DNA of 46,158 bases from Nemertoderma westbladi. Taxonomy: Eukaryota; Animalia; Xenacoelomorpha. Below, in pieces: positions 3,125 to 43,276 of the stretch (positions within the stretch are counted from its first letter, which is position 1; each line of letters opens with the position of its first letter). The stretch is from contig JAUCBJ010000450.1 of NCBI GenBank assembly GCA_032718475.1, positions 1 through 46,158 on the forward strand, given 5' to 3'. The notes under the pieces are model-generated. The model was not told the origin of the DNA, ran no database searches, and worked only from the letters and a program-made list of their open reading frames with translations. Position numbers and translations under genes: made by a program.

Positions 3125-3312
3125 AGACTACTGTAAGAAAAGCGAACCGACGGGCGAAACCGGAGGCGACCCGAAGGCTCCTCTTTCGATAGCGACTACC
3201 CATCCGAAGGTAGTGGGCGCTACTACTATCGCAAATTTTGCTCCCAATAATTTAACTGGTCCGCATTTTAATAACCGCAGTGAAAGGCGAAGTGAACTGC
3301 GCCCGAACCTAC
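3125..3312 (-). mobile_element. SINE fragment (3' part)
   Basis: GGCGACCCGAAGGCTCCTCTTTCGATAGCGACTAC...GGGCGCTACT resembles a SINE body I recall from marine invertebrates. GC-rich block in AT-rich DNA. No tRNA head seen. Confidence 0.5.
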
Positions 3313-6812: not shown

Positions 6813-7486
6813 TTACACCAATTACACCGCAGTGATTCTTCAAATTTGTAGTGATTTGTTGGTAATGTTATAAAACTGGACATTCAGGGATTCCGAATAT
6901 GTAACATAATTTTGATTCCATTGAATACTTGCTGAGATACTTTAGAGTTTTGAAAGTTGCTTGGTTTTGCATCTGTGCGGGGCTATTTTATTAAATTCAA
7001 TAGATAGGCATTAGGGTGTATTACAATGGAACATTTTATTTTTATCTCGAGTATCTGGGCAACAATGCAATACCTCTGTAATAATACTTGAAGGTGGCAG
7101 CTATAGATAGATACGTACATAAACAAAAATGTTCCAGACTATGGCCGTTCGAACGCCCATATCTCAGCTATTTTTCAACGAAATTCAATTGTATATTCAA
7201 TTTAGATTCCTTACATGATCAGCTTTCATAATACCAACAAATCTCTCTAAGATTGAAGAATAACTTGTGAAATAGGCCTAATATCATCGGAGACCCTTTT
7301 ATCAAACGCTTGTACGTATAGTTAAAGAATGAAAGCAAAAATTTAAATTCTGACTGAATTTGCAGAATTTGTGAATTTACAGAAAGGCACGGAAACTAAA
7401 AATACTTACTCAACAGAAGGAAAATTGAAGGGGGGTGAGCATACTTTTAAATTTCATGAGAATCAATTTAAAATTTATATTTTTAG

Positions 7487-7625
7487 AAAAGCCATTAACT
7501 TAGGAATTCATGACGCATCCAACAATAGCGGTGTGACGTCATCAACACAAATAATCTTTACACCCGAAGCTTTGAAAACTGCGGACCCGAGGGAGATTAT
7601 AACTCAAGCAAAGATAGATTGGACT
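7487..7625 (+). CDS. DGKZ: Diacylglycerol kinase type IV (zeta/iota-like), internal coding exon A: (R)KAINLGIHDASNN...IITQAKIDWT
   Basis: Acceptor ttttag|A AAA GCC ATT (phase 2) and donor GAT TGG ACT|gtaagt (phase 0). The ends match the recalled vertebrate DGKZ segment R-KAITKS...STVDWS that directly precedes ESATYGEHIW. Splices in frame to exon 38929 giving IDWT-DNSRLGEHLW. The middle of the exon is poorly conserved. Confidence 0.82.
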
Positions 7626-10600
7626 GTAAGTTATTATTGGTCAGTTACTTATAGGATTGTAAGTTGCTATTGGTCAGTTACTTATTGGAAAGTAAGTTGC
7701 TATTGGTCAGTTACTTATTGGATTGTAAGTTGCTATTGGTCAGTTACTTATTGGAAAGTAAGTTGCTATTGGTCAGTTACTTATTGGACTGTAAGTTGCT
7801 ATTGGTCAGTTACTTATTGGAAAGTAAGTTGTTATTGGTCAGTTACTTATTGGAAAGTAAGTTGCTATTGGTCAGTTACTTATTGGATTGTAAGTTGTTA
7901 TTGCAGTTACTTATTGGATTGTAAGTTGTTATTGGTCAGTTACTTATTGGATTGTAAGTTGTTATTGGTCAGTTACTTATTGGATTGTAAGTTGTTATTG
8001 GTCAGTTACTTATTGGATTGTAAGTTGTTATTGGTCAGTTACTTATTGGATTGTAAGTTGTTATTGGTCAGTTACTTATTGGATTGTAAGTTGTTATTGG
8101 TCAGTTACTTATTGGATTGTAAGTTGTTATTGGTCAGTTACTTATTGGATTGTAAGTTGTTATTGGTCAGTTACTTATTGGATTGTAAGTTGTTATTGGT
8201 CAGTTACTTATTGGATTGTAAGTTGTTATTGGTCAGTTACTTATTGGATTGTAAGTTGTTATTGGTCAGTTACTTATTGGATTGTAAGTTGTTATTGGTC
8301 AGTTACTTATTGGACTGTAAGTTGCTATTGGTCAGTTACTTATTGGACTGTAAGTTGTTATTGGTCAGTTACTTATTGGAAAGTAAGTTGTTATTGGTCA
8401 GTTACTTATTGGATTGTAAGTTGTTATTGGTCAGTTACTTATTGGATTGTAAGTTGTTATTGGTCAGTTACTTATTGGATTGTAAGTTGTTATTGGTCAG
8501 TTACTTATTGGACTGTAAGTTGTTATTGGTCAGTTACTTATTGGATTGTAAGTTGTTATTGGTCAGTTACTTATTGGACTGTAAGTTGTTATTGGTCAGT
8601 TACTTATTGGACTGTAAGTTGTTATTGGTCAGTTACTTATTGGATTGTAAGTTGCTATTGGTCAGTTACTTATTGGATTGTAAGTTGTTATTGGTCAGTT
8701 ACTTATTGGATTGTAAGTTGTTATTGGTCAGTTACTTATTGGACTGTAAGTTGTTATTGGTCAGTTACTTATTGGAAAGTAAGTTGCTATTGGTCAGTTA
8801 CTTATTGGACTGTAAGTTGTTATTGGTCAGTTACTTATTGGATTGTAAGTTGTTATTGGTCAGTTACTTATTGGACTGTAAGTTGCTATTGGTCAGTTAC
8901 TTATTGGAAAGTAAGTTGTTATTGGTCAGTTACTTATTGGAAAGTAAGTTGCTATTGGTCAGTTACTTATTGGACTGTAAGTTGTTATTGGTCAGTTACT
9001 TATTGGATTGTAAGTTGTTATTGGTCAGTTACTTATTGGACTGTAAGTTGTTATTGGTCAGTTACTTATTGGATTGTAAGTTGTTATTGGTCAGTTACTT
9101 ATTGGATTGTAAGTTGTTATTGGTGAGTTACTTATTGGATTGTAAGTTGCTATTGGTCAGTTACTTATTGGAAAGTAAGTTGTTATTGGTCAGTTACTTA
9201 TTGGATTGTAAGTTGTTATTGGTCAGTTACTTATTGGACTGTAAGTTGCTATTGGTCAGTTACTTATTGGAAAGTAAGTTGTTGGGTCAGTTACTTATTG
9301 GACTGTAAGTTGCTATTGGTCAGTTACTTATTGGAAAGTAAGTTGTTATTGGTCAGTTACTTATTGGACTGTAAGTTGCTATTGGTCAGTTACTTATTGG
9401 ACTGTAAGTTGTTATTGGTCAGTTACTTATTGGAAAGTAAGTTGCTATTGGTCAGTTACTTATTGGACTGTAAGTTGTTATTGGTCAGTTACTTATTGGA
9501 AAGTAAGTTGCTATTGGTCAGTTACTTATTGGACTGTAAGTTGTTATTGGTCAGTTACTTATTGGAAAGTAAGTTGCTATTGGTCAGTTACTTATTGGAC
9601 TGTAAGTTGTTATTGGTCAGTTACTTATTGGATTGTAAGTTGTTATTGGTCAGTTACTTATTGGATTGTAAGTTGTTATTGGTCAGTTACTTATTGGATT
9701 GTAAGTTGTTATTGGTCAGTTACTTATTGGAAAGTAAGTTGCTATTGGTCAGTTACTTATTGGACTGTAAGTTGTTATTGGTCAGTTACTTATTGGAAAG
9801 TAAGTTGTTATTGGTCAGTTACTTATTGGATTGTAAGTTGTTATTGGTCAGTTACTTATTGGATTGTAAGTTGTTATTGGTCAGTTACTTATTGGATTGT
9901 AAGTTGTTATTGGTCAGTTACTTATTGGATTGTAAGTTGTTATTGGTCAGTTACTTATTGGACTGTAAGTTGTTATTGGTCAGTTACTTATTAGATTGTA
10001 AGTTGTTATTGGTCAGTTACTTATTGGATTGTAAGTTGTTATTGGTGAGTTACTTATTGGACTGTAAGTTGTTATTGGTCAGTTACTTATTGGAAAGTAA
10101 GTTGCTATTGGTCAGTTACTTATTGGACTGTAAGTTGTTATTGGTCAGTTACTTATTGGATTGTAAGTTGTTATTGGTCAGTTACTTATTGGATTGTAAG
10201 TTGTTATTGGTCAGTTACTTATTGGATTGTAAGTTGTTATTGGTCAGTTACTTATTGGAAAGTAAGTTGCTATTGGTCAGTTACTTATTGGACTGTAAGT
10301 TGTTATTGGTCAGTTACTTATTGGAAAGTAAGTTGTTATTGGTCAGTTACTTATTGGATTGTAAGTTGTTATTGGTCAGTTACTTATTGGATTGTAAGTT
10401 GTTATTGGTCAGTTACTTATTGGATTGTAAGTTGTTATTGGTCAGTTACTTATTGGATTGTAAGTTGTTATTGGTCAGTTACTTATTGGACTGTAAGTTG
10501 TTATTGGTCAGTTACTTATTGGATTGTAAGTTGTTATTGGTCAGTTACTTATTGGATTGTAAGTTGTTATTGGTGAGTTACTTATTGGATTGTAAGTTGC

Positions 10601-13600
10601 TATTGGTCAGTTACTTATTGGAAAGTAAGTTGTTATTGGTCAGTTACTTATTGGATTGTAAGTTGTTATTGGTCAGTTACTTATTGGACTGTAAGTTGCT
10701 ATTGGTCAGTTACTTATTGGAAAGTAAGTTGTTGGGTCAGTTACTTATTGGACTGTAAGTTGCTATTGGTCAGTTACTTATTGGAAAGTAAGTTGTTATT
10801 GGTCAGTTACTTATTGGACTGTAAGTTGCTATTGGTCAGTTACTTATTGGACTGTAAGTTGTTATTGGTCAGTTACTTATTGGAAAGTAAGTTGCTATTG
10901 GTCAGTTACTTATTGGACTGTAAGTTGTTATTGGTCAGTTACTTATTGGAAAGTAAGTTGCTATTGGTCAGTTACTTATTGGACTGTAAGTTGTTATTGG
11001 TCAGTTACTTATTGGAAAGTAAGTTGCTATTGGTCAGTTACTTATTGGACTGTAAGTTGTTATTGGTCAGTTACTTATTGGATTGTAAGTTGTTATTGGT
11101 CAGTTACTTATTGGATTGTAAGTTGTTATTGGTCAGTTACTTATTGGATTGTAAGTTGTTATTGGTCAGTTACTTATTGGAAAGTAAGTTGCTATTGGTC
11201 AGTTACTTATTGGACTGTAAGTTGTTATTGGTCAGTTACTTATTGGAAAGTAAGTTGTTATTGGTCAGTTACTTATTGGATTGTAAGTTGTTATTGGTCA
11301 GTTACTTATTGGATTGTAAGTTGTTATTGGTCAGTTACTTATTGGATTGTAAGTTGTTATTGGTCAGTTACTTATTGGACTGTAAGTTGTTATTGGTCAG
11401 TTACTTATTGGATTGTAAGTTGTTATTGGTCAGTTACTTATTGGACTGTAAGTTGTTATTGGTCAGTTACTTATTGGACTGTAAGTTGTTATTGGTCAGT
11501 TACTTATTGGATTGTAAGTTGCTATTGGTCAGTTACTTATTGGATTGTAAGTTGTTATTGGTCAGTTACTTATTGGATTGTAAGTTGTTATTGGTCAGTT
11601 ACTTATTGGACTGTAAGTTGTTATTGGTCAGTTACTTATTGGAAAGTAAGTTGCTATTGGTCAGTTACTTATTGGACTGTAAGTTGTTATTGGTCAGTTA
11701 CTTATTGGATTGTAAGTTGTTATTGGTCAGTTACTTATTGGACTGTAAGTTGCTATTGGTCAGTTACTTATTGGAAAGTAAGTTGTTATTGGTCAGTTAC
11801 TTATTGGAAAGTAAGTTGCTATTGGTCAGTTACTTATTGGACTGTAAGTTGTTATTGGTCAGTTACTTATTGGATTGTAAGTTGTTATTGGTCAGTTACT
11901 TATTGGACTGTAAGTTGCTATTGGTCAGTTACTTATTGGAAAGTAAGTTGTTATTGGTCAGTTACTTATTGGACTGTAAGTTGCTATTGGTCAGTTACTT
12001 ATTGGAAAGTAAGTTGTTATTGGTCAGTTACTTATTGGACTGTAAGTTGCTATTGGTCAGTTACTTATTGGACTGTAAGTTGTTATTGGTCAGTTACTTA
12101 TTGGAAAGTAAGTTGCTATTGGTCAGTTACTTATTGGACTGTAAGTTGTTATTGGTCAGTTACTTATTGGAAAGTAAGTTGCTATTGGTCAGTTACTTAT
12201 TGGACTGTAAGTTGTTATTGGTCAGTTACTTATTGGAAAGTAAGTTGCTATTGGTCAGTTACTTATTGGACTGTAAGTTGTTATTGGTCAGTTACTTATT
12301 GGACTGTAAGTTGTTATTGGTCAGTTACTTATTGGAAAGTAAGTTGCTATTGGTCAGTTACTTATTGGACTGTAAGTTGTTATTGGTCAGTTACTTATTG
12401 GACTGTAAGTTGTTATTGGTCAGTTACTTATTGGATTGTAAGTTGCTATTGGTCAGTTACTTATTGGAAAAGTAAGTTGTTATTGGTCAGTTACTTATTG
12501 GAAAGTAAGTTGCTATTGGTCAGTTACTTATTGGACTGTAAGTTGTTATTGGTCAGTTACTTATTGGAAAGTAAGTTGCTATTGGTCAGTTACTTATTGG
12601 ACTGTAAGTTGTTATTGGTCAGTTACTTATTGGAAAGTAAGTTGCTATTGGTCAGTTACTTATTGGACTGTAAGTTGTTATTGGTCAGTTACTTATTGGA
12701 AAGTAAGTTGCTATTGGTCAGTTACTTATTGGACTGTAAGTTGTTATTGGTCAGTTACTTATTGGACTGTAAGTTGTTATTGGTCAGTTACTTATTGGAC
12801 TGTAAGTTGTTATTGGTCAGATACTTATTGGACTGTAAGTTGTTATTGGTCAGTTACTTATTGGATTGTAAGTTGCTATTGGTCAGTTACTTATTGGAAA
12901 AGTAAGTTGTTATTGGTCAGTTACTTATTGGAAAGTAAGTTGCTATTGGTCAGTTACTTATTGGACTGTAAGTTGTTATTGGTCAGTTACTTATTGGACT
13001 GTAAGTTGTTATTGGTCAGTTACTTATTGGATTGTAAGTTGCTATTGGTCAGTTACTTATTGGAAAAGTAAGTTGTTATTGGTCAGTTACTTATTGGAAA
13101 GTAAGTTGCTATTGGTCAGTTACTTATTGGACTGTAAGTTGCTATTGGTCAGTTACTTATTGGAAAGTAAGTTGCTATTGGTCAGTTACTTATTGGACTG
13201 TAAGTTGTTATTGGTCAGTTACTTATTGGATTGTAAGTTGTTATTGGTCAGTTACTTATTGGAAAGTAAGTTGCTATTGGTCAGTTACTTATTGGACTGT
13301 AAGTTGTTATTGGTCAGTTACTTATTGGATTGTAAGTTGTTATTGGTCAGTTACTTATTGGACTGTAAGTTGCTATTGGTCAGTTACTTATTGGAAAGTA
13401 AGTTGTTATTGGTCAGTTACTTATTGGACTGTAAGTTGCTATTGGTCAGTTACTTATTGGAAAGTAAGTTGTTATTGGTCAGTTACTTATTGGACTGTAA
13501 GTTGCTATTGGTCAGTTACTTATTGGAAAGTAAGTTGCTATTGGTCAGTTACTTATTGGACTGTAAGTTGTTATTGGTCAGTTACTTATTGGACTGTAAG

Positions 13601-16600
13601 TTGTTATTGGTCAGTTACTTATTGGACTGTAAGTTGTTATTGGTCAGTTACTTATTGGATTGTAAGTTGCTATTGGTCAGTTACTTATTGGAAAAGTAAG
13701 TTGTTATTGGTCAGTTACTTATTGGACTGTAAGTTGTTATTGGTCAGTTACTTATTGGACTGTAAGTTGTTATTGGTCAGTTACTTATTGGACTGTAAGT
13801 TGTTATTGGTCAGTTACTTATTGGATTGTAAGTTGTTATTGGTCAGTTACTTATTGGATTGTAAGTTGTTATTGGTCAGTTACTTATTGGATTGTAAGTT
13901 GCTATTGGTCAGTTACTTATTGGAAAAGTAAGTTGTTATTGGTCAGTTACTTATTGGACTGTAAGTTGTTATTGGTCAGTTACTTATTGGACTGTAAGTT
14001 GTTATTGGTCAGTTACTTATTGGATTGTAAGTTGTTATTGGTCAGTTACTTATTGGATTGTAAGTTGTTATTGGTCAGTTACTTATTGGATTTTAAGTTG
14101 CTATTGGTCAGTTACTTATTTGAAAAGTAAGTTGTTATTGGTCAGTTACTTATTGGACTGTAAGTTGTTATTGGCCAGTTACTTATTGGATTGTAAGTTG
14201 TTATTGGTCAGTTACTTATTGGACTGTAAGTTGTTATTGGTCAGTTACTTATTGGATTGTAAGTTGTTATTGGTCAGTTACTTATTGGATTGTAAGTTGC
14301 TATTGGTCAGTTACTTATTGGACTGTAAGTTGTTATTGGTCAGTTACTTATTGGACTGTAAGTTGTTATTGGTCAGTTACTTATTGGATTGTAAGTTGTT
14401 ATTGGTCAGTTACTTATTGGATTGTAAGTTGCTATTGGTCAGTTACTTATTGGACTGTAAGTTGTTATTGGTCAGTTACTTATTGGACTGTAAGTTGTTA
14501 TTGGTCAGTTACTTATTGGACTGTAAGTTGTTATTGGTCAGTTACTTATTGGATTGTAAGTTGTTATTGGTCAGTTACTTATTGGATTGAAAGTTGCTAT
14601 TGGTCAGTTACTTATTGGACTGTAAGTTGTTATTGGTCAGTTACTTATTGGATTGTAAGTTGTTATTGGTCAGTTACTTATTGGATTGTAAGTTGCTATT
14701 GGTCAGTTACTTATTGGACTGTAAGTTGTTATTGGTCAGTTACTTATTGGACTGTAAGTTGTTATTGGTCAGTTACTTATTGGATTGTAAGTTGTTATTG
14801 GTCAGTTACTTATTGGATTGTAAGTTGTTATTGGTCAGTTACTTATTGGATTGTAAGTTGTTATTGGTCAGTTACTTATTGGATTGTAAGTTGCTATTGG
14901 TCAGTTACTTATTGGACTGTAAGTTGTTATTGGTCAGTTACTTATTGGATTGTAAGTTGTTATTGGTCAGTTACTTATTGGAAAGTAAGTTGCTATTGGT
15001 CAGTTACTTATTGGAAAGTAAGTTGCTATTGGTCAGTTACTTATTGGACTGTAAGTTGCTATTGGTCAGTTACTTATTGGAAAGTAAGTTGCTATTGGTC
15101 AGTTACTTATTGGACTGTAAGTTGTTATTGGTCAGTTACTTATTGGATTGTAAGTTGTTATTGGTCAGTTACTTATTGGATTGTAAGTTGCTATTGGTCA
15201 GTTACTTATTGGACTGTAAGTTGTTATTGGTCAGTTACTTATTGGATTGTAAGTTGTTATTGGTCAGTTACTTATTGGATTGTAAGTTGCTATTGGTCAG
15301 TTACTTATTGGACTGTAAGTTGTTATTGGTCAGTTACTTATTGGACTGTAAGTTGTTATTGGTCAGTTACTTATTGGACTGTAAGTTGTTATTGGTCAGT
15401 TACTTATTGGACTGTAAGTTGTTATTGGTCAGTTACTTATTGGACTGTAAGTTGTTATTGGTCAGTTACTTATTGGACTGTAAGTTGTTATTGGTCAGTT
15501 ACTTATTGGACTGTAAGTTGTTATTGGTCAGTTACTTATTGGATTGTAAGTTGTTATTGGTCAGTTACTTATTGGATTGTAAGTTGCTATTGGTCAGTTA
15601 CTTATTGGACTGTAAGTTGTTATTGGTCAGTTACTTATTGGACTGTAGGTTGTTATTGGTCAGTTACTTATTGGATTGTAAGTTGTTATTGGTCAGTTAC
15701 TTATTGGATTGTAAGTTGTTATTGGTCAGTTACTTATTGGACTGTAAGTTGTTATTGGTCAGTTACTTATTGGATTGTAAGTTGTTATTGGTCAGTTACT
15801 TATTGGATTGTAAGTTGTTATTGGTCAGTTACTTATTGGATTGTAAGTTGTTATTGGTCAGTTACTTATTGGATTTTAAGTTGCTATTGGTCAGTTACTT
15901 ATTGGAAAAGTAAGTTGTTATTGGTCAGTTACTTATTGGACTGTAAGTTGTTATTGGTCAGTTACTTATTGGATTGTAAGTTGTTATTGGTCAGTTACTT
16001 ATTGGACTGTAAGTTGTTATTGGTCAGTTACTTATTGGATTGTAAGTTGTTATTGGTCAGTTACTTATTGGATTGTAAGTTGCTATTGGTCAGTTACTTA
16101 TTGGACTGTAAGTTGCTATTGGTCAGTTACTTATTGGACTGTAAGTTGTTATTGGTCAGTTACTTATTGGACTGTAAGTTGTTATTGGTCAGTTACTTAT
16201 TGGATTGTAAGTTGTTATTGGTCAGTTACTTATTGGATTGTAAGTTGCTATTGGTCAGTTACTTATTGGACTGTAAGTTGTTATTGGTCAGTTACTTATT
16301 GGACTGTAAGTTGTTATTGGTCAGTTACTTATTGGACTGTAAGTTGTTATTGGTCAGTTACTTATTGGATTGTAAGTTGTTATTGGTCAGTTACTTATTG
16401 GATTGTAAGTTGCTATTGGTCAGTTACTTATTGGACTGTAAGTTGTTATTGGTCAGTTACTTATTGGATTGTAAGTTGTTATTGGTCAGTTACTTATTGG
16501 ATTTTAAGTTGCTATTGGTCAGTTACTTATTGGAAAAGTAAGTTGTTATTGGTCAGTTACTTATTGGACTGTAAGTTGTTATTGGTCAGTTACTTATTGG

Positions 16601-19600
16601 ATTGTAAGTTGTTATTGGTCAGTTACTTATTGGACTGTAAGTTGTTATTGGTCAGTTACTTATTGGATTGTAAGTTGTTATTGGTCAGTTACTTATTGGA
16701 TTGTAAGTTGCTATTGGTCAGTTACTTATTGGACTGTAAGTTGCTATTGGTCAGTTACTTATTGGACTGTAAGTTGTTATTGGTCAGTTACTTATTGGAC
16801 TGTAAGTTGTTATTGGTCAGTTACTTATTGGATTGTAAGTTGTTATTGGTCAGTTACTTATTGGATTGTAAGTTGCTATTGGTCAGTTACTTATTGGACT
16901 GTAAGTTGTTATTGGTCAGTTACTTATTGGACTGTAAGTTGTTATTGGTCAGTTACTTATTGGACTGTAAGTTGTTATTGGTCAGTTACTTATTGGATTG
17001 TAAGTTGTTATTGGTCAGTTACTTATTGGATTGTAAGTTGCTATTGGTCAGTTACTTATTGGACTGTAAGTTGTTATTGGTCAGTTACTTATTGGATTGT
17101 AAGTTGTTATTGGTCAGTTACTTATTGGATTGTAAGTTGCTATTGGTCAGTTACTTATTGGACTGTAAGTTGTTATTGGTCAGTTACTTATTGGACTGTA
17201 AGTTGTTATTGGTCAGTTACTTATTGGATTGTAAGTTGTTATTGGTCAGTTACTTATTGGATTGTAAGTTGTTATTGGTCAGTTACTTATTGGATTGTAA
17301 GTTGTTATTGGTCAGTTACTTATTGGATTGTAAGTTGCTATTGGTCAGTTACTTATTGGACTGTAAGTTGTTATTGGTCAGTTACTTATTGGATTGTAAG
17401 TTGTTATTGGTCAGTTACTTATTGGAAAGTAAGTTGCTATTGGTCAGTTACTTATTGGAAAGTAAGTTGCTATTGGTCAGTTACTTATTGGACTGTAAGT
17501 TGCTATTGGTCAGTTACTTATTGGAAAGTAAGTTGCTATTGGTCAGTTACTTATTGGACTGTAAGTTGTTATTGGTCAGTTACTTATTGGATTATAAGTT
17601 GTTATTGGTCAGTTACTTATTGGATTGTAAGTTGCTATTGGTCAGTTACTTATTGGACTGTAAGTTGTTATTGGTCAGTTACTTATTGGATTGTAAGTTG
17701 CTATTGGTCAGTTACTTATTGGACTGTAAGTTGTTATTGGTCAGTTACTTATTAGACTGTAGGTTGTTATTGGTCAGTTACTTATTGGATTGTAAGTTGT
17801 TATTGGTCAGTTACTTATTGGATTGTAAGTTGTTATTGGTCAGTTACTTATTGGACTGTAAGTTGTTATTGGTCAGTTACTTATTGGATTGTAAGTTGTT
17901 ATTGGTCAGTTACTTATTGGATTGTAAGTTGTTATTGGTCAGTTACTTATTGGACTGTAAGTTGTTATTGGTCAGTTACTTATTGGACTGTAAGTTGTTA
18001 TTGGTCAGTTACTTATTGGATTGTAAGTTGTTATTGGTCAGTTACTTATTGGATTGTAAGTTGCTATTGGTCAGTTACTTATTGGATTGTAAGTTGTTAT
18101 TGGTCAGTTACTTATTGGATTGTAAGTTGTTATTGGTCAGTTACTTATTGGATTGTAAGTTGCTATTGGTCAGTTACTTATTGGACTGTAAGTTGTTATT
18201 GGTCAGTTACTTATTGGATTGTAAGTTGTTATTGGTCAGTTACTTATTGGATTGTAAGTTGCTATTGGTCAGTTACTTATTGGACTGTAAGTTGTTATTG
18301 GTCAGTTACTTATTGGACTGTAAGTTGTTATTGGTCAGTTACTTATTGGATTGTAAGTTGTTATTGGTCAGTTACTTATTGGATTGTAAGTTGTTAGTGG
18401 TCTGTTACTTATTGGATTGTAAGTTGTTATTGGTCAGTTACTTATTGGATTGTAAGTTGCTATTGGTCAGTTACTTATTGGACTGTAAGTTGTTATTGGT
18501 CAGTTACTTATTGGATTGTAAGTTGTTATTGGTCAGTTACTTATTGGAAAGTAAGTTGCTATTGGTCAGTTACTTATTGGAAAGTAAGTTGCTATTGGTC
18601 AGTTACTTATTGGACTGTAAGTTGCTATTGGTCAGTTACTTATTGGAAAGTAAGTTGCTATTGGTCAGTTACTTATTGGACTGTAAGTTGTCATTGGTCA
18701 GTTACTTATTGGATTGTAAGTTGTTATTGGTCAGTTACTTATTGGATTGTAAGTTGCTATTGGTCAGTTACTTATTGGACTGTAAGTTGTTATTGGTCAG
18801 TTACTTATTGGACTGTAAGTTGTTATTGGTCAGTTACTTATTGGATTGTAAGTTGTTATTGGTCAGTTACTTATTGGATTGTAAGTTGTTATTGGTCAGT
18901 TACTTATTGGACTGTAAGTTGTTATTGGTCAGTTACTTATTGGACTGTAAGTTGTTATTGGTCAGTTACTTATTGGATTGTAAGTTGTTATTGGTCAGTT
19001 ACTTATTGGACTGTAAGTTGTTATTGGTCAGTTACTTATTTGACTGTAAGTTGTTATTGGTCAGTTACTTATTGGACTGTAAGTTGTTATTGGTCAGTTA
19101 CTTATTGGACTGTAAGTTGTTATTGGTCAGTTACTTATTGGACTGTAAGTTGTTATTGGTCAGTTACTTATTGGACTGTAAGTTGTTATTGGTCAGTTAC
19201 TTATTGGACTGTAAGTTGTTATTGGTCAGTTACTTATTGGATTGTAAGTTGTTATTGGTCAGTTACTTATTGGATTGTAAGTTGCTATTGGTCAGTTACT
19301 TATTGGACTGTAAGTTGTTATTGGTCAGTTACTTATTGGACTGTAGGTTGTTATTGGTCAGTTACTTATTGGACTGTAAGTTGTTATTGGTCAGTTACTT
19401 ATTGGATTGTAAGTTGTTATTGGTCAGTTACTTATTGGATTGTAAGTTGTTATTGGTCAGTTACTTATTGGATTGTAAGTTGTTATTGGTCAGTTACTTA
19501 TTGGATTTTAAGTTGTTATTGGTCAGTTACTTATTGGAAAAGTAAGTTGTTATTGGTCAGTTACTTATTGGACTGTAAGTTGTTATTGGTCAGTTACTTA

Positions 19601-22600
19601 TTGGATTGTAAGTTGTTATTGGTCAGTTACTTATTGGACTGTAAGTTGTTATTGGTCAGTTACTTATTGGATTGTAAGTTGTTATTGGTCAGTTACTTAT
19701 TGGATTGTAAGTTGCTATTGGTCAGTTACTTATTGGACTGTAAGTTGCTATTGGTCAGTTACTTATTGGACTGTAAGTTGTTATTGGTCAGTTACTTATT
19801 GGACTGTAAGTTGTTATTGGTCAGTTACTTATTGGATTGTAAGTTGTTATTGGTCAGTTACTTATTGGATTGTAAGTTGCTATTGGTCAGTTACTTATTG
19901 GACTGTAAGTTGTTATTGGTCAGTTACTTATTGGACTGTAAGTTGTTATTGGTCAGTTACTTATTGGACTGTAAGTTGTTATTGGTCAGTTACTTATTGG
20001 ATTGTAAGTTGTTATTGGTCAGTTACTTATTGGATTGTAAGTTGCTATTGGTCAGTTACTTATTGGACTGTAAGTTGTTATTGGTCAGTTACTTATTGGA
20101 TTGTAAGTTGTTATTGGTCAGTTACTTATTGGATTTTAAGTTGCTATTGGTCAGTTACTTATTGGAAAGTAAGTTGTTATTGGTCAGTTACTTATTGGAC
20201 TGTAAGTTGTTATTGGTCAGTTACTTATTGGATTGTAAGTTGTTATTGGTCAGTTACTTATTGGACTGTAAGTTGTTATTGGTCAGTTACTTATTGGATT
20301 GTAAGTTGTTATTGGTCAGTTACTTATTGGATTGTAAGTTGCTATTGGTCAGTTACTTATTGGACTGTAAGTTGCTATTGGTCAGTTACTTATTGGACTG
20401 TAAGTTGTTATTGGTCAGTTACTTATTGGACTGTAAGTTGTTATTGGTCAGTTACTTATTGGATTGTAAGTTGTTATTGGTCAGTTACTTATTGGATTGT
20501 AAGTTGCTATTGGTCAGTTACTTATTGGACTGTAAGTTGTTATTGGTCAGTTACTTATTGGACTGTAAGTTGTTATTGGTCAGTTACTTATTGGACTGTA
20601 AGTTGTTATTGGTCAGTTACTTATTGGATTGTAAGTTGTTATTGGTCAGTTACTTATTGGATTGTAAGTTGCTATTGGTCAGTTACTTATTGGACTGTAA
20701 GTTGTTATTGGTCAGTTACTTATTGGATTGTAAGTTGTTATTGGTCAGTTACTTATTGGATTGTAAGTTGCTATTGGTCAGTTACTTATTGGACTGTAAG
20801 TTGTTATTGGTCAGTTACTTATTGGACTGTAAGTTGTTATTGGTCAGTTACTTATTGGATTGTAAGTTGTTATTGGTCAGTTACTTATTGGATTGTAAGT
20901 TGTTATTGGTCAGTTACTTATTGGATTGTAAGTTGTTATTGGTCAGTTACTTATTGGATTGTAAGTTGCTATTGGTCAGTTACTTATTGGACTGTAAGTT
21001 GTTATTGGTCAGTTACTTATTGGATTGTAAGTTGTTATTGGTCAGTTACTTATTGGAAAGTAAGTTGCTATTGGTCAGTTACTTATTGGAAAGTAAGTTG
21101 CTATTGGTCAGTTACTTATTGGACTGTAAGTTGCTATTGGTCAGTTACTTATTGGAAAGTAAGTTGCTATTGGTCAGTTACTTATTGGACTGTAAGTTGT
21201 TATTGGTCAGTTACTTATTGGATTGTAAGTTGTTATTGGTCAGTTACTTATTGGATTGTAAGTTGCTATTGGTCAGTTACTTATTGGACTGTAAGTTGTT
21301 ATTGGTCAGTTACTTATTGGATTGTAAGTTGTTATTGGTCAGTTACTTATTGGATTGTAAGTTGCTATTGGTCAGTTACTTATTGGACTGTAAATTGTTA
21401 TTGGTCAGTTACTTATTGGACTGTAAGTTGTTATTGGTCAGTTACTTATTGGACTGTAAGTTGTTATTGGTCAGTTACTTATTGGACTGTAAGTTGTTAT
21501 TGGTCAGTTACTTATTGGACTGTAAGTTGTTATTGGTCAGTTACTTATTGGACTGTAAGTTGTTATTGGTCAGTTACTTATTGGACTGTAAGTTGTTATT
21601 GGTCAATTACTTATTGGATTGTAAGTTGTTATTGGTCAGTTACTTATTGGATTGTAAGTTGCTATTGGTCAGTTACTTATTGGACTGTAAGTTGTTATTG
21701 GTCAGTTACTTATGGGACTGTAGGTTGTTATTGGTCAGTTACTTATTGGATTGTAAGTTGTTATTGGTCAGTTACTTATTGGATTGTAAGTTGTTATTGG
21801 TCAGTTACTTATTGGACTGTAAGTTGTTATTGGTCAGTTACTTATTGGATTGTAAGTTGTTATTGGTCAGTTACTTATTGGATTGTAAGTTGTTATTGGT
21901 CAGTTACTTATTGGACTGTAAGTTGTTATTGGTCAGTTACTTATTGGACTGTAAGTTGTTATTGGTCAGTTACTTATTGGATTGTAAGTTGTTATTGGTC
22001 AGTTACTTATTGGATTGTAAGTTGCTATTGGTCAGTTACTTATTGGATTGTAAGTTGTTATTGGTCAGTTACTTATTGGATTGTAAGTTGTTATTGGTCA
22101 GTTACTTATTGGATTGTAAGTTGCTATTGGTCAGTTACTTATTGGACTGTAAGTTGTTATTGGTCAGTTACTTATTGGATTGTAAGTTGTTATTGGTCAG
22201 TTACTTATTGGATTGTAAGTTGCTATTGGTCAGTTACTTATTGGACTGTAAGTTGTTATTGGTCAGTTACTTATTGGACTGTAAGTTGTTATTGGTCAGT
22301 TACTTATTGGATTGTAAGTTGTTATTGGTCAGTTACTTATTGGATTGTAAGTTGTTATTGGTCAGTTACTTATTGGATTGTAAGTTGTTATTGGTCAGTT
22401 ACTTATTGGATTGTAAGTTGCTATTGGTCAGTTACTTATTGGACTGTAAGTTGTTATTGGTCAGTTACTTATTGGATTGTAAGTTGTTATTGGTCAGTTA
22501 CTTATTGGAAAGTAAGTTGCTATTGGTCAGTTACTTATTGGAAAGTAAGTTGCTATTGGTCAGTTACTTATTGGACTGTAAGTTGCTATTGGTCAGTTAC

Positions 22601-25600
22601 TTATTGGAAAGTAAGTTGCTATTGGTCAGTTACTTATTGGACTGTAAGTTGTCATTGGTCAGTTACTTATTGGATTGTAAGTTGTTATTGGTCAGTTACT
22701 TATTGGATTGTAAGTTGCTATTGGTCAGTTACTTATTGGACTGTAAGTTGTTATTGGTCAGTTACTTATTGGACTGTAAGTTGTTATTGGTCAGTTACTT
22801 ATTGGATTGTAAGTTGTTATTGGTCAGTTACTTATTGGATTGTAAGTTGTTATTGGTCAGTTACTTATTGGACTGTAAGTTGTTATTGGTCAGTTACTTA
22901 TTGGACTGTAAGTTGTTATTGGTCAGTTACTTATTGGACTGTAAGTTGTTCTTGGTCAGTTACTTATTGGATTGTAAGTTGTTATTGGTCAGTTACTTAT
23001 TGGATTGTAAGTTGTTATTGGTCAGTTACTTATTGGATTGTAAGTTGTTATTGGTCAGTTACTTATTGGATTGTAAGTTGCTATTGGTCAGTTACTTATT
23101 GGACTGTAAGTTGTTATTGGTCAGTTACTTATTGGATTGTAAGTTGTTATTGGTCAGTTACTTATTGGAAAGTAAGTTGCTATTGGTCAGTTACTTATTG
23201 GAAAGTAAGTTGCTATTGGTCAGTTACTTATTGGACTGTAAGTTGCTATTGGTCAGTTACTTATTGGAAAGTAAGTTGCTATTGGTCAGTTACTTATTGG
23301 ACTGTAAGTTGTTATTGGTCAGTTACTTATTGGATTGTAAGTTGTTATTGGTCAGTTACTTATTGGATTGTAAGTTGCTATTGGTCAGTTACTTATTGGA
23401 CTGTAAGTTGTTATTGGTCAGTTACTTATTGGATTGTAAGTTGTTATTGGTCAGTTACTTATTGGATTGTAAGTTGCTATTGGTCAGTTACTTATTGGAC
23501 TGTAAGTTGTTATTGGTCAGTTACTTATTGGACTGTAAGTTGTTATTGGTCAGTTACTTATTGGACTGTAAGTTGTTATTGGTCAGTTACTTATTGGACT
23601 GTAAGTTGTTATTGGTCAGTTACTTATTGGACTGTAAGTTGTTATTGGTCAGTTACTTATTGGACTGTAAGTTGTTATTGGTCAGTTACTTATTGGACTG
23701 TAAGTTGTTATTGGACAATTACTTATTGGATTGTAAGTTGTTATTGGTCAGTTACTTATTGGATTGTAAGTTGCTATTGGTCAGTTACTTATTGGACTGT
23801 AAGTTGTTATTGGTCAGTTACTTATTGGACTGTAGGTTGTTATTGGTCAGTTACTTATTGGATTGTAAGTTGTTATTGGTCAGTTACTTATTGGATTGTA
23901 AGTTGTTATTGGTCAGTTACTTATTGGACTGTAAGTTGTTATTGGTCAGTTACTTATTGGATTGTAAGTTGTTATTGGTCAGTTACTTATTGGATTGTAA
24001 GTTGTTATTGGTCAGTTACTTATTGGACTGTAAGTTGGTATTGGTCAGTTACTTATTGGACTGTAAGTTGTTATTGGTCAGTTACTTATTGGATTGTAAG
24101 TTGTTATTGGTCAGTTACTTATTGGATTGTAAGTTGCTATTGGTCAGTTACTTATTGGATTGTAAGTTGTTATTGGTCAGTTACTTATTGGATTGTAAGT
24201 TGTTATTGGTCAGTTACTTATTGGATTGTAAGTTGCTATTGGTCAGTTACTTATTGGACTGTAAGTTGTTATTGGTCAGTTACTTATTGGATTGTAAGTT
24301 GTTATTGGTCAGTTACTTGTTGGATTGTAAGTTGCTATTGGTCAGTTACTTATTGGACTGTAAGTTGTTATTGGTCAGTTACTTATTGGACTGTAAGTTG
24401 TTATTGGTCAGTTACTTATTGGATTGTAAGTTGTTATTGGTCAGTTACTTATTGGATTGTAAGTTGTTATTGGTCAGTTACTTATTGGATTGTAAGTTGT
24501 TATTGGTCAGTTACTTATTGGATTGTAAGTTGCTATTGGTCAGTTACTTATTGGACTGTAAGTTGTTATTGGTCAGTTACTTATTGGATTGTAAGTTGTT
24601 ATTGGTCAGTTACTTATTGGAAAGTAAGTTGCTATTGGTCAGTTACTTATTGGAAAGTAAGTTGCTATTGGTCAGTTACTTATTGGACTGTAAGTTGCTA
24701 TTGGTCAGTTACTTATTGGAAAGTAAGTTGCTATTGGTCAGTTACTTATTGGACTGTAAGTTGTCATTGGTCAGTTACTTATTGGATTGTAAGTTGTTAT
24801 TGGTCAGTTACTTATTGGATTGTAAGTTGCTATTGGTCAGTTACTTATTGGACTGTAAGTTGTTATTGGTCAGTTACTTATTGGACTGTAAGTTGTTATT
24901 GGTCAGTTACTTATTGGATTGTAAGTTGTTATTGGTCAGTTACTTATTGGATTGTAAGTTGTTATTGGTCAGTTACTTATTGGACTGTAAGTTGTTATTG
25001 GTCAGTTACTTATTGGACTGTAAGTTGTTATTGGTCAGTTACTTATTGGATTGTAAGTTGTTATTGGTCAGTTACTTATTGGATTGTAAGTTGCTATTGG
25101 TCAGTTACTTATTGGATTGTAAGTTGTTATTGGTCAGTTACTTATTGGATTGTAAGTTGCTATTGGTCAGTTACTTATTGGAAAAGTAAGTTGTTATTGG
25201 TCAGTTACTTATTGGACTGTAAGTTGTTATTGGTCAGTTACTTATTGGAAAGTAAGTTGCTATTGGTCAGTTACTTATTGGACTGTAAGTTGTTATTGGT
25301 CAGTTACTTATTGGAAAGTAAGTTGCTTTTGGTCAGTTACTTATTGGACTGTAAGTTGTTATTGGTCAGTTACTTATTGGAAAGTAAGTAGTTATTGGTC
25401 AGTTACTTATTGGAAAGTAAGTTGCTATTGGTCAGTTACTTATTGGATTGTAAGTTGTTATTGGTCAGTTACTTATTGGATTGTAAGTTGTTATTGGTCA
25501 GTTACTTATTGGATTGTAAGTTGTTATTGGTCAGTTACTTATTGGACTGTAAGTTGTTATTGGTCAGTTACTTATTGGACTGTAAGTTGTTATTGGTCAG

Positions 25601-28600
25601 TTACTTATTGGACTGTAAGTTGTTATTGGTCAGTTACTTATTGGATTGTAAGTTGTTATTGGTCAGTTACTTATTGGATTGTAAGTTGTTATTGGTCAGT
25701 TACTTATTGGATTGTAAGTTGCTATTGGTCAGTTACTTATTGGAAAAGTAAGTTGTTATTGGTCAGTTACTTATTGGACTGTAAGTTGTTATTGGTCAGT
25801 TACTTATTGGATTGTAAGTTGTTATTGGTCAGTTACTTATTGGATTGTAAGTTGTTATTGGTCAGTTACTTATTGGATTGTAAGTTGCTATTGGTCAGTT
25901 ACTTATTGGAAAAGTAAGTTGTTATTGGTCAGTTACTTATTGGACTGTAAGTTGTTATTGGTCAGTTACTTATTGGACTGTAAGTTGTTATTGGTCAGTT
26001 ACTTATTGGATTGTAAGTTGTTATTGGTCAGTTACTTATTGGATTGTAAGTTGCTATTGGTCAGTTACTTATTGGAAAAGTAAGTTGTTATTGGTCAGTT
26101 ACTTATTGGATTGTAAGTTGCTATTGGTCAGTTACTTATTGGAAAAGTAAGTTGTTATTGGTCAGTTACTTATTGGACTGTAAGTTGTTATTGGTCAGTT
26201 CCTTATTGGACTGTAAGTTGTTATTGGTCAGTTACTTATTGGATTGTAAGTTGTTATTGGTCAGTTACTTATTGGATTGTAAGTTGTTATTGGTCAGTTA
26301 CTTATTGGAAAAGTAAGTTGTTATTGGTCAGTTACTTATTGGACTGTAAGTTGTTATTGGTCAGTTACTTATTGGATTGTAAGTTGCTATTGGTCAGTTA
26401 CTTATTGGACTGTAAGTTGTTATTGGTCAGTTACTTATTGGACTGTAAGTTGTTATTGGTCAGTTACTTATTGGATTGTAAGTTGTTATTGGTCAGTTAC
26501 TTATTGGATTGTAAGTTGTTATTGGTCAGTTACTTATTGGATTGTAAGTTGCTATTGGTCAGTTACTTATTGAAAAGTAAGTTGTTATTGGTCAGTTACT
26601 TATTGGAAAGTAAGTTGCTATTGGTCAGTTACTTATTGGACTGTAAGTTGTTATTGGTCAGTTACTTATTGGATTGTAAGTTGCTATTGGTCAGTTACTT
26701 ATTGGACTGTAAGTTGTTATTGGTCAGTTACTTATTGGACTGTAAGTTGTTATTGGTCAGTTACTTATTGGATTGTAAGTTGTTATTGGTCAGTTACTTA
26801 TTGGATTGTAAGTTGTTATTGGTCAGTTACTTATTGGATTGTAAGTTGCTATTGGTCAGTTACTTATTGAAAAGTAAGTTGTTATTGGTCAGTTACTTAT
26901 TGGAAAGTAAGTTGTTATTGGTCAGTTACTTATTGGACTGTAAGTTGTTATTGGTCAGTTACTTATTGGAAAGTAAGTTGCTATTGGTCAGTTACTTATT
27001 GGACTGTAAGTTGTTATTGGTCAGTTACTTATTGGAAAGTAAGTTGCTATTGGTCAGTTACTTATTGGACTGTAAGTTGTTATTGGTCAGTTACTTATTG
27101 GAAAGTAAGTAGTTATTGGTCAGTTACTTATTGGAAAGTAAGTTGCTATTGGTCAGTTACTTATTGGATTGTAAGTTGTTATTGGTCAGTTACTTATTGG
27201 ATTGTAAGTTGTTATTGGTCAGTTACTTATTGGATTGTAAGTTGTTATTGGTCAGTTACTTATTGGATTGTAAGTTGCTATTGGTCAGTTACTTATTGAA
27301 AAGTAAGTTGTTATTGGTCAGTTACTTATTGGACTGTAAGTTGTTATTGGTCAGTTACTTATTGGATTGTAAGTTGTTATTGGTCAGTTACTTATTGGAT
27401 TGTAAGTTGTTATTGGTCAGTTACTTATTGGACTGTAAGTTGTTATTGGTCAGTTACTTATTGGATTGTAAGTTGTTATTGGTCAGTTACTTATTGGATT
27501 GTAAGTTGTTATTGGTCAGTTACTTATTGGACTGTAAGTTGTTATTGGTCAGTTACTTATTGGATTGTAAGTTGTTATTGGTCAGTTACTTATTGGATTG
27601 TAAGTTGTTATTGGTTAGTTACTTATTGGATTGTAAGTTCTTATTGGTCAGTTACTTATTGGATTGTAACTTGCTATTGGTCAGTTACTTATTGAAAAGT
27701 AAGTTGTTATTGGTCAGTTACTTATTGGACTGTAAGTTGTTATTGGTCAGTTACTTATTGGATTGTAAGTTGTTATTGGTCAGTTACTTATTGGATTGTA
27801 AGTTGTTATTGGTCAGTTACTTATTGGATTGTAAGTTGTTATTGGTCAGTTACTTATTGGACTGTAAGTTGTTATTGGTCAGTTACTTATTGGAAAGTAA
27901 GTTGTTATTGGTCAGTTACTTATTGGATTGTAAGTTGCTATTGGTCAGTTACTTATTGAAAAGTAAGTTGTTATTGGTCAGTTACTTATTGGAAAGTAAG
28001 TTGCTATTGGTCAGTTACTTATTGGACTGTAAGTTGCTATTGGTCAGTTACTTATTGGACTGTAAGTTGTTATTGGTCAGTTACTTATTGGACTGTAAGT
28101 TGTTATTGGTCAGTTACTTATTGGACTGTAAGTTGTTATTGGTCAGTTACTTATTGGAAAGTAAGTTGCTATTGGTCAGTTACTTATTGGACTGTAAGTT
28201 GTTATTGGTCAGTTACTTATTGGAAAGTAAGTTGTTATTGGTCAGTTACTTATTGGAAAGTAAGTTGCTATTGGTCAGTTACTTATTGGACTGTAAGTTG
28301 TTATTGGTCAGTTACTTATTGGAAAGTAAGTTGCTATTGGCCAGTTACTTATGGACTGGAAGTTGTTATTGGTCAGTTACTTATTGGAAAGTAAGTTGTT
28401 ATTGGTCAGTTACTTATTGGATTGTAAGTTGTTATTGGTCAGTTACTTATTGGAAAGTAAGTTGCTATTGGTCAGTTACTTATTGGACTGTAAGTTGCTA
28501 TTGGTCAGTTACTTATTGGACTGTAAGTTGTTATTGGTCAGTTACTTATTGGATTGTAAGTTGTTATTGGTCAGTTACTTATTGGACTGTAAGTTGTTAT

Positions 28601-29988
28601 TGGTCAGTTACTTATTGGACTGTAAGTTGCTATTGGTCAGTTACTTATTGGAAAGTAAGTTGTTATTGGTCAGTTACTTATTGGAAAGTAAGTTGCTATT
28701 GGTCAGTTACTTATTGGACTGTAAGTTGTTATTGGCCAGTTACTTATTGGATTGTAAGTTGCTATTGGTCAGTTACTTATTGGACTGTAAGTTGCTATTG
28801 GTCAGTTACTTATTGGAAAGTAAGTTGTTAATTGTCAGTTACTTATTGGAAAGTAAGTTGCTATTGGTCAGTTACTTATTGGACTGTAAGTTGCTATTGG
28901 TCAGTTACTTATTGGAAAGTAAGTTGCTATTGGTCAGTTACTTATTGGACTGTAAGTTGTTATTGGTCAGTTACTTATCGGAAAGTAAGTTGCTATTGGT
29001 CAGTTACTTATTGGACTGTAAGTTGCTATTGGTCAGTTACTTATTGGAAAGTAAGTTGTTATTGGTCAGTTACTTATTGGAAAGTAAGTTGCTATTGGTT
29101 AGTTACTTATTGGACTGTAAGTTGTTATTGGTCAGTTACTTATTGGAAAGTAAGTTGTTATTGGTCAGTTACTTATTGGAAAGTAAGTTGATATTGGTCA
29201 GTTACTTATTGGACTGTATGTTGTTATTGGCCAGTTACTTATTGGAAAGTAAGTTGTTATTGGTCAGTTACTTATTGGACTGTAAGTTGCTATTGGTCAG
29301 TTACTTATTGGAAAGTAAGTTGTTATTGGTCAGTTACTTATTGGAAAGTAAGTTGCTATTGGTCAGTTACTTATTGGACTGTAAGTTGTTATTGGTCAGT
29401 TACTTATTGGATTGTAAGTTGTTATTGGTCAGTTACTTATTGGAAAGTAAGTTGTTATTGGTCAGTTACTTATTGGACTGTAAGTTGTTATTGGTCAGTT
29501 ACTTATTGGACTGTAAGTTGTTATTGGTCAGTTACTTATTGGATTGTAAGTTGTTATTGGTCAGTTACTTATTGGACTGTAAGTTGCTATTGGTCAGTTA
29601 CTTATTGGAAAGTAAGTTGTTATTGGTCAGTTACTTATTGGAAAGTAAGTTGCTATTGGTCAGTTACTTATTGGAAAGTAAGTTGTTATTGGTCAGTTAC
29701 TTATTCGACTGTAAGTTGTTATTGGTCAGTTACTTATTGGAAAGTAAGTTGCTATTGGTCAGTTACTTATTGGACTGTAAGTTGTTATTGGTCAGTTACT
29801 TATTGGAAAGTAAGTTGTTATTGGTCAGTTACTTATTGGACTGTAAGTTGTTATTGGTCAGTTACTTATTGGACTGTAAGTTGCTATTGGTCAGTTACTT
29901 ATTGGAAAGTAAGTTGTTATTGGTCAGTTACTTATTGGATTGTAAGTTGTTATTGGTCAGTTACTTATTGGAAAGTAAGTTGTTATTG
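7618..29988 (+). repeat. 33-bp tandem satellite, ~678 copies, consensus ATTGGA(CT/TT/AA)|GTAAGTTG(T/C)TATTGGTCAGTTACTT, starting in the last 8 nt of DGK exon A
   Basis: Directly visible 33-bp periodicity over 22,371 bp. Occasional 31-bp (~7903, ~9283, ~10733) and 34-bp (GGAAAAGT) units. Confidence 0.99.
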
Positions 29989-31104
29989 TACCGTCCCGAA
30001 CTGCGGGGGCACTCTAATTATATGTGATTGACACTGTTGCTATAGCAACCGTACAGAAAACGTATTTAGTAAACGTTCATTAGTTTCGTTTCAGGCTGTT
30101 ATCAGTCAGGCAAACCGGAATTATATCACGTTAATTTGGCGTCATTTGGAATAAATTATCTTATAAAATTACAGGAAGTGAAATAAAATCATGAAATTAC
30201 CAATAATTATAATCCCTTCAGTGCTGACGAATCATAGATTCGAATATATTATGAGACACTATAATAAAAAACAGTTTACTCATGTTATATAGGCCTAACA
30301 CAGTACCGCTATTAATAACCGCCGTTAATACCGGGCTATACAATTTTGTACAATAAGAGAGAGAGATAAGAGAGGGGGAGGGTCATATTGAACCCCCCCC
30401 CCCCCCCCCCCAAATTTAATAAAATCGTCTTGATTTTTTTTTATTTGTACGTAGATTTTACTAGTCTGAATCAGAACGAAAAATATTTTTCGAAAAATTT
30501 ACTGGGGTGGTTTTCTTGCAGCATCAAAGTTTCATGTAGTGAACAATTTTCAAAAAATATGAAAGTTACAATTTTTACCTAATATTTTATAAATATACAG
30601 TAGGTTTTCTGGAGTGCAGAATTCATTAGAAAATATTTAAAAATCATATGGTTGTTACTATAAATAAATGGCAGTTTTAGTCCTCTACGTAGGCAAAAAA
30701 AATGAAAAAACAAGTTTCCAGCACTTTTCAGTTTGAACACAAAACTTTTAATTGACTTATATATATGATGCTACTGTATAAATTCATTTTTTCAGGTTTT
30801 CTGGGGCGCTGATTCTAATTGAATACATTTCTATTTCTTCAGATCATTGCTACTCGTGTTTTTCGGTGTAGGGGCCTATTATGGGAGATTGTTATCCTAG
30901 CACCAAATTTCGTATCCATCACCAAAAAGTACAAGTTTGAGATGTCCAGTCCCGTTTTTATTGATTCCATTGGATTCAGGACCCTCATAAACCCGTATAA
31001 CGCAAGAAACAAGATAATACTATCTATTGATCAATTTGAATATTTTCAACAATTTGAAAAGTTTCACACACCACCGAAAAATACAAGTTTGTAATATCTA
31101 GTTA

Positions 31105-38928: not shown

Positions 38929-39150
38929 GATAACAGCCGATTGGGGGAGCACCTTTGGGTCGATACCTCTACCACAGGGGACTATTGTTATGTTGGCGAC
39001 CTTGAGTGTCTGAAACCCCGTGTTGGGTCCCGCCGGAAATGCGTTCTCTGTCGGATTGTCGTCCATTCCGCCTGTCTACCGGTTCTAGAGAAAATGAAGT
39101 TCCATTGTCGGTTGACCTACCGGGAGGGAGCTGGAAAACATTTCCGAGAG
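38929..39150 (+). CDS. DGKZ: DGK type IV exon B, first C1 (C1A) domain: DNSRLGEHLWVDTSTTGDYCYVGDLECLKPRVGSRRKCVLCRIVVHSACLPVLEKMKFHCRLTYREGAGKHFRE
   Basis: tttag|GAT acceptor, GAG|gttggt donor, 222 nt, phase 0/0. Strong similarity to recalled DGKZ GEHIWFETNVSGDFCYVGE...[33 protein letters not shown]. Confidence 0.93.
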
Positions 39151-39223
39151 GTTGGTTGTTATGGTAACTACATACATATATTGGGACAAATTTACAGAGG
39201 GGTTGGTTGTTATAGCAACTACA
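39131..39223 (+). repeat. 51-bp imperfect tandem duplication of the exon B donor junction
   Basis: GGAAAACATTTCCGAGAG|GTTGGTTGTTATGGTAACTACAT versus GGACAAATTTACAGAGGG|GTTGGTTGTTATAGCAACTACAT. GT at 39151 and 39202. Confidence 0.85.
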
Positions 39224-39490
39224 TTGTGAGATGGTAACTGTATTTTGGTTGGTTGGTTCGAAGAAACCAAACATGCCCGAAACTGATGCGCTTTTACATC
39301 AATTCTCTATACATGGGTCTCTCCAGCAAAATTTGTAACACAAAGGGGTTCCATGAGCCAAATGCGTCATGCATCATATCTGCAACTTGTGTGCGGGAAA
39401 AGTGCTGCTCTACTGTATCACATCCCATAATGTCACTGCTAACCACTTCTTGGGCCTCTGTATGACACCGAACCGGACTGCACTACTTCC

Positions 39491-40946: not shown

Positions 40947-41084
40947 AATGTAATTCGACACCACTGGGTACACAGAAGGCGACAAGATGGGAAATGTAAT
41001 TCCTGTAAGAAAAGCTATCGCTACCCGGCATTGTCAAGCACAAAGGATATTGTAGCAATTAGCTGCAGTTGGTGTAAAGTTTCG
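40947..41084 (+). CDS. DGKZ: DGK type IV exon C, C1B domain first part: [46 protein letters not shown]
   Basis: taatag|AAT acceptor, TCG|gtgagt donor, 138 nt, phase 0/0. Contains the DGKZ/I hallmarks [14 protein letters not shown] and [10 protein letters not shown]. Not in the supplied ORF track. Confidence 0.95.
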
Positions 41085-43153: not shown

Positions 43154-43276
43154 TATCATAATAAAGTTCAGTGCTTCAGCATACAGCAGCTAGAAGAAAC
43201 TTGTAACCTAGGGCAACATGCAGGACTCATAGTTCCCCCAACATGGATAGTTAAAGTCAGTAAACAGAAACATGTG
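43154..43276 (+). CDS. DGKZ: DGK type IV exon D, end of C1B: YHNKVQCFSIQQLEETCNLGQHAGLIVPPTWIVKVSKQKHV
   Basis: Poly-T cag|TAT acceptor, GTG|gttagt donor, 123 nt, phase 0. Matches recalled DGKZ [32 protein letters not shown]. Confidence 0.93.

Follow-up and report, generated by a model that had tools for sequence, protein, structure and literature searches.

Contig JAUCBJ010000450.1 of assembly GCA_032718475.1 (46,158 nucleotides, analysed at full length and called the window below) contains what its sequence matches identify as the 5' part of a type IV diacylglycerol kinase gene (DGK; zeta/iota/rdgA), in which one exon/intron junction is reiterated as a minisatellite of 22 kb. We propose that this array was seeded at the junction and that it is probably a neutral expansion, tolerated by the spliceosome because the most upstream donor is chosen first. 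In the assembled transcript, the first donor is indeed the one that is used. Contigs of four sequencing runs (X1-X4), with their depths, were compared with positions 7400-7699, and the argument is built on the following features:

7487..7625, plus strand: exon A, 139 nt, KAINLG...KIDWT, immediately upstream of the first C1 domain (covered without differences by the X4 contig over 7485-7626, and matched by homologs)
7618..29988, plus strand: 33-bp minisatellite, 677.7 units, commonest unit GTAAGTTGTTATTGGTCAGTTACTTATTGGATT
7626..7631, plus strand: authentic 5' splice site ACT/GTAAGT, used in the assembled transcript (the loose end of the X4 contig beyond 7626 equals 38930-38959 in 30 of 30 letters)
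7659..7895, plus strand: pseudo-donors 2-9, with 11 amino acids inserted per unit (frame and stop analysis)
38929..39150, plus strand: exon B, which carries the first C1 domain (Pfam C1_1 at E=1.2e-4, short of the curated cut-off; library matches 44-51% identical)

The first donor was identified from run X4, which gave a single contig (1,763 nt, depth 38.9) covering 7485-7626 only and then continuing with the letters of 38930-38959. Since 7626 and 38929 are both G, the junction is 7625/38929, and the first unit, which starts at 7618, thus lies over a real exon/intron boundary with a reiterated donor. This upholds the gene model of the first-pass annotation, which had proposed to look for an exon A-exon B junction in transcript data. 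Upstream of exon A, the contig runs into sequence absent from the window, which we read as an earlier exon. X4 is catalogued as "DNA?" and its RNA nature is inferred: the flanking intron and the array, present in the three other runs, are missing from it, and it was therefore read as RNA. The most upstream donor thus appears as the main one in one contig of one run, and, contigs dropping rare forms, this shows that the junction is present rather than that minor ones are absent. In the same way, no X4 contig lies on the first two array units, which is no proof that array RNA or minor donors are absent. Runs X5 (guessed to be RNA) and X7 yielded intronic repeats only and left exons B and C uncovered.

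The array itself is a head-to-tail minisatellite with a period of 33, 677.7 copies and 95% matches (Tandem Repeats Finder, 7618-29988), in agreement with the earlier estimate of about 680 copies over 22 kb, and it occupies 71% of the 31,303-nt intron (7626-38928). It had been described as starting exactly at the end of exon A; it is anchored on the junction, but its start (ATTGG) lies 8 nt inside the exon, and it ends with ATTG after the first half of a unit. Exact GTAAGT occurs 662 times within the array (first at 7626, last at 29975) against 5 times in the remaining 23.8 kb of the window, and its reverse complement is absent from the array, every donor hexamer being in sense (+) orientation. 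In the 677 full units, the bases directly ahead of the donor (-2/-1) read TT 279 times, CT 270 times and AA 128 times, and unit position 9 carries T in 489 units and C in 186, exactly the kinds of variation noted at first. Hence, the description of nearly every unit as a repeat of the exon end plus a sense donor is right for the hexamer, but the CT ending of the exon is kept in only 270 of the 677. Likewise, the "optimal consensus" character of the donor concerns the intron side only, a G at -1 being found in none of the three common exon-side endings. Each unit consists of two related halves, and the second carries a further donor-like G/GTCAGT (662 copies in the array). We found 47 distinct donor-to-donor segments, arranged in a nested variant pattern. 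The array contains no AATAAA or ATTAAA and no GATC site, and an Rfam search of 6900-9000 returned no match. The stretch 7626-29988 also translates as long open frames of up to 653 amino acids (LLLVSYLL-type and VSCYWSVTYW-type repeats); these frames do not count as evidence of coding, and they would mislead gene callers.

The length of the array could in principle be an assembly artefact, the assembler having over-expanded a short repeat. Two observations go in this direction: the array contigs of run X1 have a low depth (142-232, for an exon A depth of 8.5), and no contig in the runs examined spans the whole array. However, in run X3, where exon A has a depth of 17.6, six array contigs among 13 records reach depths of 985-4,720. 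When the depth of each contig is divided by its unit class's mean 31-mer count in the window, the values per assembled copy are 19.1, 19.2, 18.8, 17.7, 19.0 and 17.9; for three of the six, the mismatch count fitted two unit classes and the consistent one was chosen. In X3, the copy number and the mix of variants are thus within about 10% of the assembly, and, the per-copy depth being that of exon A, the length of the array is not to be put down to an assembly error. The assembly may itself derive from X3, which makes this a technical check and not a second individual. As the X3 depth is explained by this array alone, there is also little room for large arrays of the same unit elsewhere. Run X2, from a different sample and study, has one contig that crosses the exon A/array junction (7400-7663), and its summed depth at 7653 (10,801 against 22.2 for exon A) indicates hundreds of units, with no exact copy number. 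Moreover, the 47 segments and their nested variants are unlike collapse or stutter. The artefact is thus already largely refuted, and we give it next to no probability. Runs X1 and X2 come from one sample, and their array depths relative to exon A (7626-7699) differ more than 10-fold, X1 being far below X2, possibly through library bias.

We then asked of the donors downstream of the first what product they could give. A product that is in frame and free of stops is obtained from donors 1-9 only (7626-7890), that is from 8 of the 661 downstream donors. The unit starting at 7890 is 31 bp long and shifts the frame, and the first stop in the frame of exon A lies at 9306. Rare use of donors 2-9 would add 11 amino acids per unit, and splicing from later donors would run out of frame or into a stop, the transcript then likely being degraded. 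The first-pass annotation had rightly stated that alterations of GTAAGT are rare, but they are just as rare in the rest of the unit. Rare variant copies number 16 over the six donor sites and 50 over 24 other non-polymorphic sites (2.7 against 2.1 per site; binomial p=0.36), distinct alleles number 8 at the donor sites and 31 at the others (p=1.0), and the GT of the donor is altered in 8 copies. Selective conservation of the donor hexamer is rejected by both measures. That hundreds of near-equivalent donors compete productively was not borne out, given the first-donor junction, the small in-frame fraction and this absence of selective conservation. These data also bear on regulated isoforms, in which donors 2-9 would insert 11-residue units rich in Trp, Tyr and Cys before the C1 domain. 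The first nine donors suit such a scheme, as does a duplicate donor of exon B, which is also in frame (+17 amino acids). On the other hand, it leaves the other 653 donors unexplained, no such insertion is seen at the DW[ST] junction in 13 aligned homologs, and the assembled transcript is without it, so that regulated isoforms seem highly improbable.

Neither pairing nor folding distinguishes the first donor. With the motif of the U1 5' end, pairing was computed at 6 bp and between -5.4 and -5.6 kcal/mol, for the copies no less than for the first donor. Donor 2 (7659) matches donor 1 in pairing energy (-5.4 kcal/mol) and resembles it in accessibility (3.2 against 3.1). The ACTTAT of each unit is able to pair with the GTAAGT of the next. 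Hairpin masking was tried as a general explanation for the silence of the pseudo-donors and rejected: 402 of the 661 are as open as or opener than the first donor in 120-nt windows, and 531 in a co-transcriptional setting. Donors 3-8 are less accessible (4.4-8.0 against 3.1 kcal/mol), and a fold of eight units is no better than shuffles (z of -1.11 for RNA and 0.67 for DNA). As modelled, folding does not single out the first donor. Stepwise removal of the intron, another early suggestion, has no motif support: a search of 7626-38928 for consensus recursive sites only ([CT]AG/GT[AG]AG) found none in these 31.3 kb.

How the first donor may be favored is suggested by smaller arrays of the same type. 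The 37-bp variable number tandem repeat (VNTR) of F7 intron 7 has 5-9 units, the first of which spans the exon/intron boundary, and, in minigenes expressed in mammalian cells, only the most upstream of its identical reiterated donors is used, as is also the case for LMNB2 and PDGF (PMC1557585). The same source cites 15-20 units in CBS, 26 donors in IFI6, 10-15 in LMNB2 and 16-18 in PDGF. The DGK array shares with this group the boundary-spanning first unit, the reiterated donor and splicing at the most upstream one, and differs by its 662 donors against 5-26, the F7 mechanism having been tested in mammalian cells. By analogy, the donor nearest the acceptor of exon A would be committed first and the downstream copies would stay mostly silent. 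In amphioxus, tandem duplications of exon/intron boundaries called "mirages" (Adh3, globins) apparently leave splicing undisturbed (PMC3087553). They are, as here, invertebrate boundary duplications, several per gene or genome, and count 3-6 units in the globins against 678 in the DGK array. The initial comparison with junction-spanning VNTRs was therefore well chosen, but calling these precedents "much smaller" overlooked ABCA7. The VNTR of ABCA7 intron 18 is made of 25-bp units, each starting with the exon's own donor, in 12 to about 427 copies and up to 10,678 bp (PMC5954066; PMC13747324). It is the closest to the DGK array in scale, and both have a donor-initiated unit directly after the exon, hundreds of copies, an apparently single locus and varied internal units. 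The ABCA7 unit is GC-rich and frame-shifting, whereas the 33-bp DGK unit is AT-rich and in frame, and the DGK array exceeds the largest ABCA7 allele (2018 report) about 1.6-fold in copies and 2-fold in length. For ABCA7, second-donor use and a length effect have been measured. Two further papers served as general context only (PMC10078293, PMC2812944). A literature search, in which subscription papers were mostly uncovered, found no paper joining a DGK intron, a minisatellite and a splice site, and no donor-initiated array larger than this one.

The history of the array can be partly read in its sequence. It contains exact internal duplications of 597-1,059 bp, nested and at offsets of 0.6-8.2 kb, and the AA variant at -2/-1 is commoner near both ends; both are the usual marks of tandem-repeat turnover. 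We suppose that 8 exonic and 25 intronic bases were caught up in a short duplication, probably guided by the ATTG(G) microhomology found at the array bounds and recurring in each unit, and that later growth would have proceeded by slippage and unequal exchange. In runs X1, X2 and X3, a second locus matches 7594-7640 in 40 of 47 letters, then diverges and carries no array; in X3 it is about twice as deep as exon A. The letters upstream of it, read by hand, are open in the frame of exon A, which makes it a likely paralog among type IV DGK exons, with an unexpanded junction. A second duplication of a junction is found at the donor of exon B:

39133..39224, plus strand: junction of exon B duplicated once at its donor, the copies sharing 41 nt at 80% identity with a period of 51; donors at 39151 and 39202 (self-comparison)

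This match scores 22/30, a score reached at 1.3% of 600 random window positions. The predicted use of 39202 would add 17 amino acids in frame between the two C1 domains. From its sequence, this duplication suggests that junction-duplication events recur in this gene. Words like the palindromic GTTGYTATRGYAAC occur at 30036-30049, shortly after the array stops, and twice within the exon B duplication, at 39156-39169 and 39207-39220; they bear a putative resemblance to the RFX X-box.

Neutral expansion, which the first-pass annotation had kept as a fallback, is the best fit to these data. It is supported by the first-donor junction, the lack of excess conservation of the hexamer, the block duplications, the similar locus free of array and the exon B duplication, and we judge it probable on these observations. 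The use of the upstream donor in F7, LMNB2 and PDGF and the amphioxus mirages would, by analogy, argue for it as well. Several points weigh on the other side. IFI6 (6-16) and CBS use two extra donors (PMC1557585). ABCA7 uses one, in frameshifting isoforms that include one-unit retention at a few percent, and skipping of the downstream exon 19 increases 3- to 4-fold with VNTR length (PMC5954066), which implies that array length can matter. The X3 depth matches the assembled copy number averaged over genome copies, so that the long state is perhaps not a rare allele. The evidence from RNA consists of a single contig, out of one run of inferred kind, and contigs lose rare variants. Finally, a period that is a multiple of three and nine first donors in frame and free of stops are what selection against frameshifts predicts, although such a period has a one-in-three chance of arising anyway.

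The ABCA7 data also raise the possibility of a modifier, neutral in origin, whose length would now shift DGK splicing or output. This would occur through use of donor 2 or 3 at a few percent, through skipping of exon A or B, or through slower transcription. The near equality of donors 1 and 2 in pairing and accessibility is compatible with it, as is a weak hint of length variation, the summed array depth relative to exon A at 7653 being 487 in X2 and 855 in X3. Nevertheless, the sole assembled transcript is spliced at donor 1, and the gap between X2 and X3 may reflect library bias, X1 being far lower than X2 for the same sample. We consider such a modifier unlikely. An effect of the RNA on U1 is less likely still. 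The array could act as a sink for U1 small nuclear ribonucleoproteins (snRNPs) or as a local condensate of splicing factors, about 60 GTAAGT per 2 kb of nascent RNA loading U1 in bulk. The 662 sense hexamers and 662 G/GTCAGT sites are in its favor. So is chicken LL2R, a 160-kb non-coding unit that is built of 446-bp monomers and has a promoter of its own, and whose RNA has more than 5 predicted donors per 2 kb (a density obtained by a different method from ours) and concentrates snRNPs on lampbrush loops in observed condensates (bioRxiv 10.64898/2026.03.19.712899). Both are long transcribed tandem arrays with an excess of donors on one strand. However, LL2R is non-coding and its condensates have been seen, whereas the DGK array is the spliced-out intron of a coding gene, known from sequence. 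Moreover, the hexamer is not selectively retained, the computed pairing is of 6 bp only with no exon-side support, the intron is removed in the assembled transcript, and passive U1 binding alone would not be a function. We therefore regard the sink as very improbable. The broader idea that more than 600 U1-pairing hexamers in 22 kb load U1 and nucleate a condensate, the array length setting the rate of DGK transcription or splicing, is doubtful to a slightly lesser degree; if true, it would give chicken LL2R a coding-gene counterpart.

The assignment of the host gene comes from exons A and B and from two further predicted exons:

40947..41084, plus strand: exon C, start of the second C1 domain, predicted boundaries (Pfam C1_1, E=7e-7; tblastn with DGK homologs)
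43154..43276, plus strand: exon D, predicted boundaries (tblastn with 12 of 12 homologs; AG/GT ends in phase 0)

By tblastn, the KAI...DWT of exon A aligns with KAI...DW[ST] in homologs, directly before the match of exon B. A representative library contains 114 relatives of the exon B peptide at E <=0.001, the best at 44-51% identity. All ten clusters looked up for it are named DGK or DAGKc, and in five of the ten the representative itself bears a zeta, iota or eye-specific name. Two C1 domains with the type IV signature are found, exons B-D matching it, and ankyrin repeats are present in eight of ten long homologs scanned. The type IV matches of B-D, the DW[ST] motif and the transcript-like contig thus confirm the DGK gene model that had joined 7487-7625 to 38929. 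With DGK homologs, tblastn found no catalytic-domain or ankyrin exon in the window, a word-based homolog search among longer proteins gave no match, and a PDB sequence search gave a single one, due to chance.

Other repeated elements surround the array. Inside the same intron and antisense to DGK, 31692-34763 (minus strand) holds an uninterrupted frame of 1,023 amino acids with endonuclease and reverse transcriptase, of the long interspersed nuclear element (LINE) type (Pfam RVT_1, E=2e-24), which looks like a recent insertion. The intron also contains about three copies (97%) of a 292-bp unit at 36159-37058, each a dimer of about 146 bp. Upstream of exon A, 735-1664 consists of two copies of a 468-bp unit, 89% alike. 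Very high-copy interspersed repeats of runs X1 and X3 lie at 39495-39883 and 38600-38790, and the sequence at 39357-39845 resembles a LINE reverse transcriptase at its 3' end.

In conclusion, the DGK array takes a known class to a copy number above that of any donor-initiated array found in the literature, and its scale is what stands out. It indicates that first-donor splicing is possible at a locus assembled with 661 downstream decoys, in what is apparently a non-mammalian animal. As a natural extreme, the locus thus lends itself to testing upstream-first 5' splice-site selection and U1 sequestration by a donor-dense RNA. Its importance would be greater if the array length proved to alter DGK output, as in ABCA7, or if its RNA formed an snRNP condensate.

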